From Chloroflexota bacterium (GTDB lineage Bacteria; Chloroflexota; Limnocylindria; Limnocylindrales; CSP1-4): a stretch of 64,000 bases of DNA. The notes beneath the pieces are model-generated. The model saw only the letters and a program-made list of their open reading frames with translations, ran no database searches and had not been told where the DNA came from. Shown in pieces: positions 29,572 through 32,160 of this stretch. Within the stretch, counting starts at the first letter, position 1, and every line of letters starts with the position of its first letter. A program made the translations under genes and the position numbers. Location of the stretch: positions 4,779 through 68,778 of the forward strand of contig JANYJG010000005.1 in assembly GCA_025358515.1 (NCBI GenBank). Reading direction: 5' to 3'.

Positions 29572-32160
29572 CTACGCGTCCGTCTTGGCGAGATGCCGCG
29601 CCATGGCGGCCTTTCGCGATAGATTGACGCGACCCTGGCGGTCGATCTCGGTCACGACGACCATGACCTCGTCGCCGACCGAGACCACGTCCTCAACGGT
29701 GGGCACGTGGTAGTCGGCAAGCTCGCCGATCCGGACCAGGCCTTCCTTGCCCGGCAGGATTTCGACGAAGGCGCCGAAGCCCATGATCCGGGTGACCTTG
29801 CCCAGGTAGAGGCCGCCGATCTCCACGTCGCGGGTAAGAGACTCGATCCACTGGATCGCCTTGCGCGAGCTGTCGCCCGACACTGCGGCGACCTGGACCG
29901 TGCCATCGTCCTCGACGTTGATCTCGGTGCCGGTTTCCTCCTGGATCTTGCGGATCACGGAGCCGCCCTTGCCGATGATGTCGCGGATCTTTTCGGGGTT
30001 GATCTTGATGGTGATGATGCGCGGCGCGAACCGGCTCATCTCGGTACGGCTGCTCGGCATAACCGCGTCCATCTTGTCCAGGATCGCCATGCGGGCCGTG
30101 AAGGCCTTCTGGAGTCCCTGGCGGATGATCTGCTCGTTGATGCCCTTGACCTTGATGTCCATCTGCAGAGCTGTGACGCCCTCGCGGGTGCCGGTGACCT
30201 TGAAGTCCATGTCACCGAAGGCGTCTTCCTTGCCGAGGATGTCGGTCAGGACTACGAAGCGGCCGTCTGGTTCGCTGATCAGGCCCATCGCGGCGCCGGC
30301 CACGGCTGCCTTGATCGGCACGCCGGCGTCCATAAGGGCAAGGCTGGAACCGCAGGTCGAAGCCATCGATGTCGAGCCGTTGGACGTGACGCACTCGCTG
30401 ACGAGGCGTATGACGTACGGGAACTCATCCTCAGACGGCAGGACCGGCAGCAGGGCTCGCTCGGCGAGGTGGCCATGGCCGATCTCGCGCCGGCCGGGGC
30501 CGCGCATCGGCTTGTTCTCGCCGGTGCTGTACGGGGGCATGTTGTAGTGGTGGAGATAACGCTTCTCGGTCTCGGGGCTGATTGTGTCGATCCGCTGGAC
30601 GTCCGAGTTGGGGCCAAGGGTGGCCACCGTGAGGGCCTGTGTCTGGCCACGAGTGAACAGGCCGGAACCGTGAGCACGAGGCAGAACGCCGACTTCCACT
30701 GAAATCTGGCGAAGCTCGTCCACGCCACGGCCGTCCATGCGGATGCCCTCGTCGAGGACGACCTTGCGGGTCGTCTTCTTCTGGACTAGCTGGAAGAGGC
30801 CCTTGCTGACGCGACCCTGGCGGCGAGCGGCTTCAAGCAGACCGGCCGGATCCTCGCCGTCCTTGCGGTTGGCGCGGATCGAGATCGAGATCGCTTCCTG
30901 CAGATTCTCGATCCGGTTCGGGAGATCACTCGCGTACTTGGCAACGATGGCAGCGGTCGTCTCGGCATCGGCGAGGCCGCGGTGAACGGTCTCGACGGTG
31001 ACGCCGAAGAAGCGGGCGACATCGCCCAGCTTGTACGACTCGAGGTCCGGGTAGGCCTCGCGGGCAATCACGAGAGTGTCGAAGTAGCCGCCTTCAATGA
31101 ACTTGCCACTCTCGCCCAGGGCCTGGTCGAGGAAGCCGATATCGAAGCCCACGTTATGGCCAACGATCGGAGCGCCGGCGACGAAGGCCAGCAGCTTCTG
31201 GGCCGCTTCCTTGGCGACCGGTGCGCCGGCGACGTCAGCATCGGTGATGCCGTGCATCTGGGCGCCGAAGATGTCGCGGCCGGGGTTCACAAACGTCGAG
31301 AACCGGTCGACGATCTGGCCGTCGCGAACACGGACGGCGCCAATCTCGATCAGGTCGGCCACCTTGGCGTCTCGGCCGGTTGTCTCCGTATCGAGAACAA
31401 CGAACTCGGAGCCTCGCTGGCTGACCTTCTTGACGAACTCAAGAATGGAACCGATGCCGGGCTCGCGATAACCCACCGACTTGGGCTTGCCAGCGGCGGC
31501 GCGCATCTCTTCCTGGATATCGATGAGCGGCTGAAGGGCGCGATGGCCGAAGAGGATGGCGTCGGCCATAACGTCTTCGGGCACGATCAGTGCGCCTGCC
31601 TCAACCATCATGATCGCGTCGCGGGTGCCCGAGACGATCAGGTCAATATCGGAGCGCTCAAGGTCGCTGACGGTGGGGTTGACCACGAACTCGCCGTCGA
31701 TACGTCCGATGCGCACGGCGCCGATGGGGCCGAGGAACGGGATCGGGCTAATCGTCAGAGCGCAAGAGGCCGCGAAGGTGCCGAGGACATCCGTCTGGTT
31801 TTCCTGGTCCGTTGACAGGACCGTGATCACAATCTGGATGTCGTCCTTGTAGCCCTCGGGGAAAAGCGGCCGGATCGGACGGTCTGTCAGTCGGCAAGCC
31901 AGGATGGCCTGCTCGGACGGGCGCGACTCACGCTTGATGAAGCCGCCCGGGATCTTCCCGGCGGCGTACATGCGCTCCTCGAACTCGACGGTCAGCGGGA
32001 AGAAGTCGAGACCGGGTCGCGGATCGGACCGGTTGGCTGTCCCCAGGACCATGGTGTCGCCGAAGCGAACTGTGACGGCGCCGCCTGCTAGCAGTGCCAT
32101 CCTGCCGGTCTCGACCGTGAGGGTGCGGCCGGCGAACTGCGTCTCGAATGTCTGAGACAC
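29572..32160 (-). CDS. pnp: Polynucleotide phosphorylase with an inserted DEDDh 3'-5' exonuclease domain (PH1 - DEDDh - PH2 - KH - S1)
   Basis: GTG at 32160 has GGAGGA 10 nt upstream (track ORF extends to 32415). PH1 has [25 protein letters not shown]. PH2 has [35 protein letters not shown]...[10 protein letters not shown]...DMDFKV. KH has [11 protein letters not shown]. S1 has [17 protein letters not shown]. The insert 30922..31410 carries DTETTG, HNVGFD and H-x4-D. Confidence 0.92.
   Translation of the reverse strand: [862 protein letters not shown]

Follow-up and report, generated by a model that had tools for sequence, protein, structure and literature searches.

PNPase is among the most studied and most conserved enzymes of RNA decay and, to our knowledge, its plan of five domains is considered universal. 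The enzymes of E. coli (3GCM, 7OGK), S. aureus (5YJJ) and C. crescentus (4AM3) all have the order PH1, alpha-helical domain, PH2, KH and S1. The alpha-helical domain has been reported to regulate the access of phosphate and nucleoside diphosphates to the active site (PMC6181284), and in human PNPase it contacts RNA near that site (PMC12685370). Studies of the interplay between phosphorolytic and hydrolytic 3' decay have usually relied on separate proteins. The DEDDh enzyme REXO2 clears the decay products of PNPase-SUV3 (PMC7261184), and the PH ring of the eukaryotic exosome bears the hydrolytic nuclease DIS3 (bioRxiv 10.64898/2026.09.06.749684).

Here we describe a pnp gene, found in a 64,000-nucleotide stretch of Chloroflexota DNA (the window), whose product carries a DEDDh exonuclease domain, apparently within the alpha-helical linker. 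We compare this protein with ordinary PNPases and with known exonucleases, and weigh the roles that the additional domain might have.

The pnp gene and its surroundings

The gene and the domains that it shares with ordinary PNPases lie as follows.

29572..32160, minus strand: pnp coding sequence of 862 aa and a stop codon, running from the GTG at 32160 to the stop at 29572-29574
32172..32177, minus strand: Shine-Dalgarno-like AGGAGG, 11 nt in front of the pnp GTG
31480..32160, minus strand: first RNase PH domain (PH1), residues 1-227, with the GGFIKRE channel loop (Pfam RNase_PH and RNase_PH_C)
30061..30744, minus strand: second RNase PH domain (PH2, phosphorolytic site), residues 473-700 (Pfam RNase_PH)
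29842..30015, minus strand: KH domain, residues 716-773 (PF00013, E=8.9e-12)
29611..29823, minus strand: S1 domain, residues 780-850 (PF00575, E=1.1e-16)

A preliminary description of this DNA had given an ORF of about 862 aa, read from a GTG with Shine-Dalgarno support, in which normal KH and S1 domains follow PH2. Our results agree with it on these points: the length is the same, AGGAGG lies upstream, homologues start at the matching position (MSQ[T/I]FETQ), and both C-terminal domains are matched by Pfam. The Pfam scan of the 862-aa protein returned RNase_PH and RNase_PH_C in two stretches each, along with RNase_T, KH_1 and S1, and the order RNase_PH, RNase_T, RNase_PH, KH, S1 is the one that had been anticipated. 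The best-scoring RNase_PH stretch (residues 482-615, E=1.2e-52) is PH2, RNase_PH_C is matched at residues 144-208, and PH1 aligns to residues 18-235 of the S. aureus PNPase 5yjj. In a profile scan the protein reached 934.3 bits with the PNPase equivalog TIGR03591 (cut-off 525.05), the match being split into two stretches. The residues of the phosphorolytic site in PH2, R557, R558, S596-T597-S598, D646, D650, D652 and K654, are invariant in 241 of 241 sequences; we take these (RR, S-T/S-S, D..D.D.K) to be the equivalents of the phosphate-binding and catalytic residues of E. coli PNPase. Judged by its sequence, the minus-strand product is thus a genuine PNPase.

The position of the gene is equally ordinary, and the window holds further genes of RNA metabolism, at the places listed here.

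32276..32545, minus strand: rpsO (ribosomal protein S15, 89 aa), directly upstream of pnp, called from sequence appearance and position
25349-27019: RNase J
34557-35669: DHH/DHHA1 NrnA-like protein, Pfam-checked
52345-53208: RNase HII

The locus has the canonical rpsO-pnp arrangement, and in 32 of the 33 related fusion loci pnp is likewise preceded, on the same strand, by an rpsO homologue. RNase J, NrnA and RNase HII had been named as neighbours in the preliminary description and are indeed all present, the second as an NrnA-like protein. The surroundings form a translation and RNA-processing cluster, in which truB-ribF were checked with Pfam and nusA, infB and rbfA are assigned by ORF position only. 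As a separate observation bearing on the other 3' exonucleases of the class, a search for the KEGG identifiers of pnp, rnr, dnaQ, orn, rnt and rnd in truncated supplement files of a 2026 Limnocylindria paper matched K13288 (orn) only, in a list that does not lend itself to interpretation.

An exonuclease domain inside the alpha-helical linker

Between PH1 and PH2 the same reading frame encodes the following elements.

31411..31479, minus strand: N-terminal piece of the alpha-helical linker, residues 228-250, with helix 237-247 (AlphaFold secondary structure)
30946..31410, minus strand: DEDDh (DnaQ/PolC-type) 3'-5' exonuclease insert, residues 251-405 (PF00929)
31375..31404, minus strand: Exo I, residues 253-262 (D257, E259), motif read from the translation
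31129..31167, minus strand: Exo II, residues 332-344 (D340), motif read from the translation
30955..30987, minus strand: Exo III, residues 392-402 (H393-x4-D398), motif read from the translation
30745..30945, minus strand: C-terminal part of the alpha-helical linker, residues 406-472 (AlphaFold secondary structure and alignment to 8zaw)

The complete DEDDh set first noticed in the translation is borne out by PF00929 (RNase_T), which matches residues 254-405 with E=1.3e-29 (104.3 bits, cut-off 24); all the motifs quoted are present in one frame between PH1 and PH2. The domain maps to 30946-31410, within the span of 30922-31410 originally reported, and the frame is continuous, with neither a stop nor a frameshift at either junction, as had been stated. 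The TIGR00573 'dnaq' domain model gives the insert 83.8 against a cut-off of 71.5. The catalytic residues D257, E259, D340, H393 and D398 are invariant in 241 of 241 sequences, while N336 in Exo II alternates with S among homologues. The predicted structure of the insert (pLDDT 88.5, pTM 0.80) has the RNase H-like alpha/beta fold of DnaQ exonucleases: in Foldseek comparisons it superimposes on Pol III epsilon (2gui, 2ido) with TM 0.80-0.82 at about 2.0 Å rmsd and on PolC 9qrn with 2.2 Å over 179 columns.

One part of the preliminary description has to be corrected, namely that the exonuclease stands in place of the alpha-helical linker. Linker helices 237-247, 395-432, 438-449 and 453-471 are still predicted, the helix of Exo III continuing into the linker (395-432), and residues 405-472 can be aligned with the C-terminal portion of the alpha domain in PDB 8zaw (chain residues ~268-335). 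Because one helix precedes the exonuclease and three follow it, and because of this alignment, sequence and model together indicate that the DEDDh domain is an insertion into the alpha-helical linker domain, with the linker retained; the helices and the 8zaw alignment argue against replacement. PF03726, however, yields only a weak, sub-threshold match at residues 453-478 (16.9 bits vs 24.6), and the alpha domain is interrupted by the insert. Residues 228-250 are the least conserved segment. The full-length AlphaFold model, with a mean pLDDT of 62.7, is of low confidence outside the insert and poor for PH2 and S1, and was used for secondary structure only.

Distribution, conservation and selection

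Two homologue searches, each giving its best 120 matches, returned fusions without exception. The matches listed amount to at least 240 protein clusters, drawn from independent metagenomes, that carry PF00929 together with PNPase domains; they come from NCBI, ENA and JGI assemblies, on contigs of up to 2 Mb. Identical insert junctions recur in no fewer than 33 species representatives of GTDB, essentially all of them Limnocylindria (Chloroflexota). Database names for these proteins are either 'polyribonucleotide nucleotidyltransferase' or 'DNA polymerase III epsilon subunit family exonuclease', the latter being wrong for the whole fusion protein and thus an annotation problem.

This distribution bears on the suspicion that any unusual architecture raises, that the fusion is an artefact, produced by chimeric assembly or by reading through a frameshift, or else a selfish element inserted in frame, for instance one resembling an intein. 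In a related metagenome-assembled locus the ORF is indeed broken past the start of the insert, although that genome belongs to a series (MFD) which we assume to consist of long-read assemblies, where indel errors are common. The same junctions nevertheless recur in the 240 or more clusters and 33 species representatives, and selection on the insert is purifying, making this explanation barely credible. Hundreds of independent assemblies with identical junctions rule out a chimera or frame break, and continuous GC content across the insert, vertical inheritance and purifying selection rule out a recent foreign insertion. The Pfam scan of the 862-aa protein detected no intein or endonuclease domain, which, along with vertical inheritance and purifying selection, also disposes of an intein-like element. 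Our results therefore establish a real, vertically inherited PNPase-DEDDh fusion in which both sets of catalytic residues are fully conserved, and we consider the reality of the architecture as such to be almost certain.

Among homologues the insert is 38-87% identical and the core 66-95%; even where the exonuclease domain has diverged to 38-46% identity, both catalytic residue sets stay invariant. The exonuclease part is under purifying selection, with dN/dS of 0.02-0.25, compared with 0.01-0.20 for the PNPase core. The faster evolution of the insert would fit a mainly regulatory or structural role, in which it gates access, binds a partner or hydrolyses small signalling dinucleotides without taking part in bulk degradation. 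Such a role is also in keeping with the activity of the DEDDh enzymes Orn and REXO2 on dinucleotides and with the view that the interrupted alpha-helical domain regulates substrate access (PMC6181284). We regard it as improbable all the same: dN/dS is well below 1, and across deep divergence none of the five residues that bind metal or act as general base varies in any of the 241 sequences, which a non-catalytic role would hardly explain. We hold it likely that the DEDDh insert is catalytically active.

Relatives of the insert and the question of its substrate

The preliminary description had called the domain DnaQ or RNase T-like. The first half of this label stands and the second does not, as the insert groups with the PolC exonuclease, DnaQ, the DinG exonuclease and DEDD + GIY-YIG proteins. 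'RNase T-like' applies as the Pfam family name only, and as a subfamily assignment we dropped it in favour of the DnaQ/PolC/DinG type on grounds of sequence and fold. A PDB sequence search with the insert found the PolC exonuclease 2p1j with E=1.4e-23 but, up to E<=1e-3, no chain of RNase T or Orn; RNase T and Orn are likewise absent from the best 25 of 33 NCBIfam matches, and as structural matches they occupy ranks 14 and 31 (TM 0.59-0.68), below PolC, DinG and epsilon. The DinG exonuclease domain, Cas2-DEDDh and ExoX are also among the sequence and fold relatives. The top NCBIfam match is NF005906 (E=4e-46), of the PRK07883 family of DEDD + GIY-YIG proteins, and the nearest free-standing relatives in GTDB genomes, including those of Rubrobacter and Ktedonobacterales, have this same DEDD + GIY-YIG (UvrC-like) composition. 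The insert falls short of the full-length models for PolC-type DNA polymerase III, DinG and PRK07883 (134.8 vs 873, 132.4 vs 789 and 157.5 vs 495, respectively), of which the exonuclease module alone matches.

These relatives, known mainly for acting on DNA, speak against an RNA role and raise the possibility that the domain is a DNA 3'-5' exonuclease for which PNPase serves as a scaffold in repair or recombination, for example in trimming 3' ends at breaks. The closest ones in sequence and fold (the exonucleases of PolC and DinG, Cas2-DEDDh, Pol III epsilon and ExoX) are DNA-acting, and the free-standing ones are tied to a UvrC-like module. PNPases of Bacillus subtilis and mycobacteria, moreover, are reported to attack the ends of single-stranded DNA and to take part in the repair of double-strand breaks. 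A 2026 study of Limnocylindria reports that base excision repair is eroded in one family (PMC13212565). On the other hand, the RNA-binding KH, S1 and channel elements of the host enzyme are fully conserved, and its neighbourhood is the translation and RNA-processing cluster described above. DEDDh domains often cleave RNA as well as DNA, and likeness to DNA enzymes therefore predicts the substrate weakly. A DNA role seems to us unlikely, if less so than a regulatory one. That the physiological substrate is RNA, handled in concert with PNPase, is a proposition that we hold to be evenly balanced.

A proposed role in RNA decay

We propose that the housekeeping PNPase of Limnocylindria may have acquired a DnaQ/PolC-type DEDDh domain once, long ago, in what was probably a loop close to the beginning of the alpha-helical linker. 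From what is established about DEDDh enzymes, every subunit of the trimer would then have a hydrolytic 3'-5' exonuclease site dependent on metal but not on phosphate. Since the alpha-helical domain lies beside the active site of PH2, the DEDDh site would be expected close by, at the point where phosphate, nucleoside diphosphates and the RNA 3' end come together. By analogy with known systems, the likeliest of the roles considered is that of a hydrolytic exonuclease mounted on the PNPase trimer and serving RNA metabolism alongside phosphorolysis, although we would not put the case for this above the case against it. It might work on the RNA 3' ends that also feed the phosphorolytic site, or on short oligonucleotides remaining after PNPase has acted. 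With two chemistries in one enzyme, decay or trimming could go on when phosphorolysis stalls, for example where limit oligonucleotides are reached, where phosphate is scarce, or where nucleoside diphosphates push the enzyme into tailing, its reverse reaction. An NrnA-type nanoRNase gene (DHH/DHHA1) belongs to the same cluster, however, so that the finishing of oligonucleotides may already be covered.

More tentatively, and with less confidence than we have in an RNA role as such, one may imagine a dual-chemistry 3' end machine in which a single RNA 3' end switches between the PH2 site, which phosphorolyses and polymerises, and the hydrolytic DEDDh site, much like a primer end moving from polymerase site to proofreading site in PolC. 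Were any of this true, it would provide for phosphate-independent decay, for the clearance of limit oligonucleotides and for hydrolytic removal of the heteropolymeric tails added by PNPase. Limnocylindria are described as an abundant Chloroflexota clade of soil, sediment and fresh water (PMC13212565), and the fusion enzyme should therefore be common in nature.

Comparison with known systems

With canonical PNPases the fusion shares the order PH1, alpha (in the fusion, a probable alpha domain), PH2, KH, S1, a TIGR03591 score far over the cut-off, the phosphorolytic-site residues and the rpsO-pnp arrangement. It differs in having a DEDDh domain of catalytic type, about 155 residues long, that apparently interrupts the alpha-helical domain. 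The insert is absent from all the solved PNPase chains matched (482-784 residues), with alignments breaking at query residues ~224-405/453, and a fold search with the full-length model retrieved ordinary PNPases only. Our literature search, in which the main 2026 paper on Limnocylindria genomics was also searched by term, found no description of a PNPase-DEDDh fusion. The architecture had been called unfamiliar from the outset, and the lack of such a paper or of a solved PNPase with the insert, together with the generic database names, is in line with that. The PNPase domain plan can evidently change, as a class-wide lineage appears to add a second, chemically different nuclease site to each subunit.

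On the exonuclease side, the proofreading domains of PolC and epsilon (DnaQ) and the N-terminal exonuclease of DinG are the best sequence and fold matches and have the same DEDDh motif set, but here the host is an RNA phosphorylase rather than a DNA polymerase or helicase. In PolC, too, the exonuclease is inserted within another domain of a larger enzyme. In the case of the DEDD + GIY-YIG proteins, only the N-terminal exonuclease part is matched (profile positions 6-193 of 563), and the fusion is without the GIY-YIG module. RNase T and oligoribonuclease (Orn) share PF00929 and the DEDDh fold with the insert.

Functionally, the closest parallels would be with RNA decay. In the pathway formed by PNPase and Orn or REXO2, a DEDDh enzyme removes the oligonucleotides that PNPase leaves. 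The eukaryotic RNA exosome, a PH-like ring with DIS3/Rrp44 and Rrp6, the last a member of the DEDD family, follows the same logic of joining an RNase PH-type ring to a hydrolytic 3'-5' exonuclease. The insert is distinct from the nucleases of both systems, its DEDDh domain being of the DnaQ type and not RNase D-like (DEDDy), RNB-type or Orn-type. Unlike the exosome, the fusion ring keeps its own phosphorolytic site, and the hydrolytic domain is predicted to lie covalently within each subunit. The enzyme may thus represent a one-polypeptide counterpart of PNPase with Orn/REXO2 or of the exosome's PH ring together with the hydrolytic nucleases that serve it, and it offers a natural case in which to see how the two kinds of 3' decay are coordinated. 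If the dual-chemistry proposal is right, it would be a single-polypeptide bacterial equivalent of the exosome core and those nucleases.

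Domain architecture of the fusion PNPase

The PNPase encoded in the window carries a DEDDh exonuclease domain (the insert) between its first and second RNase PH domains (PH1 and PH2), an arrangement proposed in the preliminary description and now borne out by both Pfam and NCBIfam. The NCBIfam model TIGR03591 identifies the whole protein as a PNPase, matching it in two stretches (934 bits against a cut-off of 525), and Pfam recovers the anticipated RNase_PH, PF00929, RNase_PH, KH_1 and S1 domains. Judged from these matches, the protein qualifies both as a PNPase and as a member of the DEDDh superfamily. 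The length of 862 residues, counted from a GTG start with a Shine-Dalgarno sequence, also holds, as close homologues are equally long and start at the same position. The insert occupies window positions 30946-31410, within the interval originally assigned to it (30922-31410), and all three Exo motifs quoted for it are in the pnp frame.

Features of the pnp gene and its product
29572-32415, minus strand: longest pnp open reading frame
32160, minus strand: GTG start, AGGAGG 11 nt upstream; protein of 862 aa
Residues 144-208: RNase_PH_C (Pfam)
Residues 253-262, pnp frame: Exo I motif (10 residues)
Residues 254-405: RNase_T, PF00929 (Pfam E=1.3e-29; 104 bits against a cut-off of 24)
Residues 332-344, pnp frame: Exo II motif (13 residues)
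Residues 392-402, pnp frame: Exo III motif (11 residues)
Residues 482-615: PH2, the best-scoring of two RNase_PH stretches (Pfam E=1.2e-52)
Residues 716-773: KH_1 (Pfam)
Residues 780-850: S1 (Pfam)

The wording of the preliminary description suggested that the exonuclease replaces the alpha-helical linker domain of PNPase, which appears not to be the case. Solved PNPases align to the window protein as two stretches (residues 3-224 and 405/453-851), and the PH1-PH2 gap grows from roughly 75 residues in S. aureus PNPase to 232. Residues ~268-335 of a 731-residue PNPase (8zaw) align to residues 405-472. In the AlphaFold model of residues 196-482 (mean pLDDT 88.5, pTM 0.80), a helix (237-247) precedes the exonuclease fold, while the Exo III helix is extended into one long helix spanning 395-432, beyond which lie two more (438-449, 453-471); this pattern recurs in the full-length model. 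The models and the 8zaw alignment therefore argue that the linker domain is retained, with the exonuclease inserted into the loop after its first helix.

The insert is of the DnaQ/PolC type

Our analysis upheld only the first half of the earlier label "DnaQ / RNase T-like". Among solved structures, the insert is closest in sequence to the PolC exonuclease domain of Thermotoga (2p1j, E=1.4e-23), to full-length PolC, to S. aureus DinG, and to Cas2-DEDDh, Pol III epsilon and ExoX; the same PDB sequence search returned no RNase T or Orn chain at E<=1e-3. Within NCBIfam, PRK07883-family DEDD-exonuclease proteins match best (E=4e-46), then PolC and DinG, and the TIGR00573 "dnaq" domain model is passed (83.8 against a cut-off of 71.5). 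The insert model superposes on epsilon with a TM score of 0.80-0.82 (rmsd about 2.0 A) and on PolC with an rmsd of 2.2 A; both stand above TREX1, Orn and RNase T among the fold matches. Since both sequence and fold point to the same relatives, "RNase T-like" is no more than the Pfam family name. A 50%-identity library and GTDB genomes gave as nearest free-standing relatives PolC, DinG-like proteins and proteins of ~600 residues; in the last of these, judged by eye, a GIY-YIG-like motif follows the exonuclease domain.

Occurrence, conservation and novelty

A homologue search of 5.8 billion proteins with the window protein returned at least 120 clusters at 88% identity or more, and every cluster among the matches listed (120/120) combines PF00929 with PNPase domains. 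Their sources are assemblies held at NCBI, ENA and JGI, with contigs of up to about 2 Mb. Scanning one GTDB genome per species, we found at least 33 representatives whose match extends across the insert, labeled Limnocylindrales, Limnocylindria, "uncultured Chloroflexia" or Chloroflexota, apart from a few short contigs assigned to other phyla. PH1 directly precedes the insert in the same reading frame at 33/33 loci, and PH2-KH-S1 directly follow wherever the locus is neither broken nor cut by a contig end. In the most divergent pair (L031 and L032), the insert is 38% and the core, the PNPase part without the insert, 66-75% identical. With L031 as query, at least 120 further clusters were obtained at 83% identity or more; those listed are all fusions, and many bear the name "Candidatus Limnocylindria bacterium". 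In every fusion compared, the junctions can be aligned without rearrangement, which indicates a single ancient insertion, and no step in GC content was seen across the insert in the window. By this comparative evidence the fusion is no artefact and, among the matches listed and as far as these searches show, is confined to Limnocylindria.

Several sequences call for separate comment. Near-identical fusion genes occur on contigs labeled Verrucomicrobiia, Patescibacteria, Polarisedimenticolia and Zixibacteria (L009, L014, L029 and protein P0330); because their PNPase cores share 76-84% identity with that of the window, these labels look like binning or labeling errors. The fusion ORF of L030 (CAVZTA010000016.1, 3197-4402) stops ~65 residues into the insert (402 aa) and is either a pseudogene or the product of an indel error; its MAG series (MFD) presumably consists of long-read assemblies. 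Protein P0147 (273 aa) has a diverged Exo I region, a C-terminal half very similar to the fusion insert, the helix behind the exonuclease (ELPARV) included, and a low-complexity, apparently out-of-frame end; it may be a fragment or the result of faulty gene calling.

The catalytic set is complete, as initially proposed: in a set made up of the window protein and 240 representatives of clusters in two deep clades, D257, E259, D340, H393 and D398 are invariant (241/241), as are the PH2-site residues R557, R558, S596, T597, S598, D646, D650, D652 and K654. This conservation suggests that neither activity has been lost. Among 27 full-length species-level sequences, mean identity to the window protein is 58% in the exonuclease domain (minimum 46%) and about 80% in the core. 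For close pairs, dN/dS by the Nei-Gojobori method is 0.02-0.25 in the exonuclease domain, 0.01-0.20 in the core and 0.03-0.69 in the helical linkers. From these identities and ratios, the insert is somewhat less constrained than the core, yet clearly under purifying selection. Residue N336 of the window protein (about 31153-31155), which follows the conserved His of Exo II (H-N-x-x-F-D), is Asn in 12 and Ser in 15 of the same 27 sequences, where the catalytic residues are constant.

The suggestion that this architecture had not been described agrees with our searches. In full-text literature searches, no account of a PNPase bearing a DEDD or DnaQ domain came up, nor did a term search of the principal Limnocylindria genomics paper (2026) yield one, and the PNPase chains matched in our PDB copy (482-784 residues) all lack the insert. 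Public databases hold the fusion under automatic names only: many of the 860-880 aa proteins P0005-P0120 and P0284-P0385 are "DNA polymerase III epsilon subunit family exonuclease" at JGI and plain "polyribonucleotide nucleotidyltransferase" at NCBI, neither of which conveys their two-domain nature. Both component families are well known; what is new is their combination and the placement within the alpha-helical domain.

Genomic context

A putative rpsO (S15) ORF lies directly upstream of pnp in the window, as does its homologue in 32/33 related loci, and the fusion gene thus appears to be the organism's own pnp at its canonical position. The apparent gene order (34557-39833, minus strand) is nusA, infB, rbfA, DHH/DHHA1 (NrnA-like), truB-ribF, rpsO, pnp; DHH/DHHA1 and truB-ribF were checked with Pfam, the others assigned by ORF position and sequence start. 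Here truB and ribF form one 625-aa ORF (32673-34550, minus strand) with TruB_N, TruB_C and FAD_syn (residues 362-510), and no Pfam flavokinase match at E<=1e-5. Apart from the window, only L001, L033 and L031 have both parts in one frame; in the other related loci the two lie in separate frames.

Possible role of the fusion

DEDDh residues coordinate two divalent metal ions and orient a water molecule for hydrolysis at a 3' end, releasing nucleoside monophosphates and consuming no phosphate. PNPase uses phosphate, releases nucleoside diphosphates in a reversible reaction and leaves short limit oligonucleotides. In bacterial PNPase crystal structures, the alpha-helical domain lies on the ring face opposite KH and S1. 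This domain is reported to control the entry of phosphate or nucleoside diphosphate to the active site (PMC6181284), and in human PNPase it touches RNA near the active site (PMC12685370). Given such a location and access role, the trimer would carry three hydrolytic sites near the PH2 active-site openings. We favor a reading in which the DEDDh and phosphorolytic sites would cooperate on RNA 3' ends or on PNPase limit products.

Activity on RNA should not, however, be predicted with confidence, because the relatives of the insert are mostly DNA enzymes and an NrnA-type DHH/DHHA1 gene is present in the same cluster. The former point speaks for a DNA 3'-5' exonuclease serving DNA repair, which we consider rather unlikely. 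The window also encodes a three-domain LigD (3'-phosphoesterase, ligase, primase-polymerase; 6750-9422, minus strand) and, adjoining RNase J, a UDG-superfamily glycosylase (27055-27855, minus strand). Both may bear on this alternative and on the erosion of base excision repair that PMC13212565 reports for part of the class. The supplementary source data of that paper include K13288 (oligoribonuclease) in a "Freshwater"-tagged orthologue list, an entry that hints at an additional, separate Orn in some Limnocylindria. That the DEDDh domain instead has a regulatory or small-substrate role seems improbable. Cooperation on RNA, the reading we prefer, has precedents in the DEDDh enzyme REXO2, which clears the products of the PNPase-SUV3 degradosome (PMC7261184), and in the hydrolytic nuclease DIS3, carried by the PH ring of the exosome (bioRxiv 10.64898/2026.09.06.749684).
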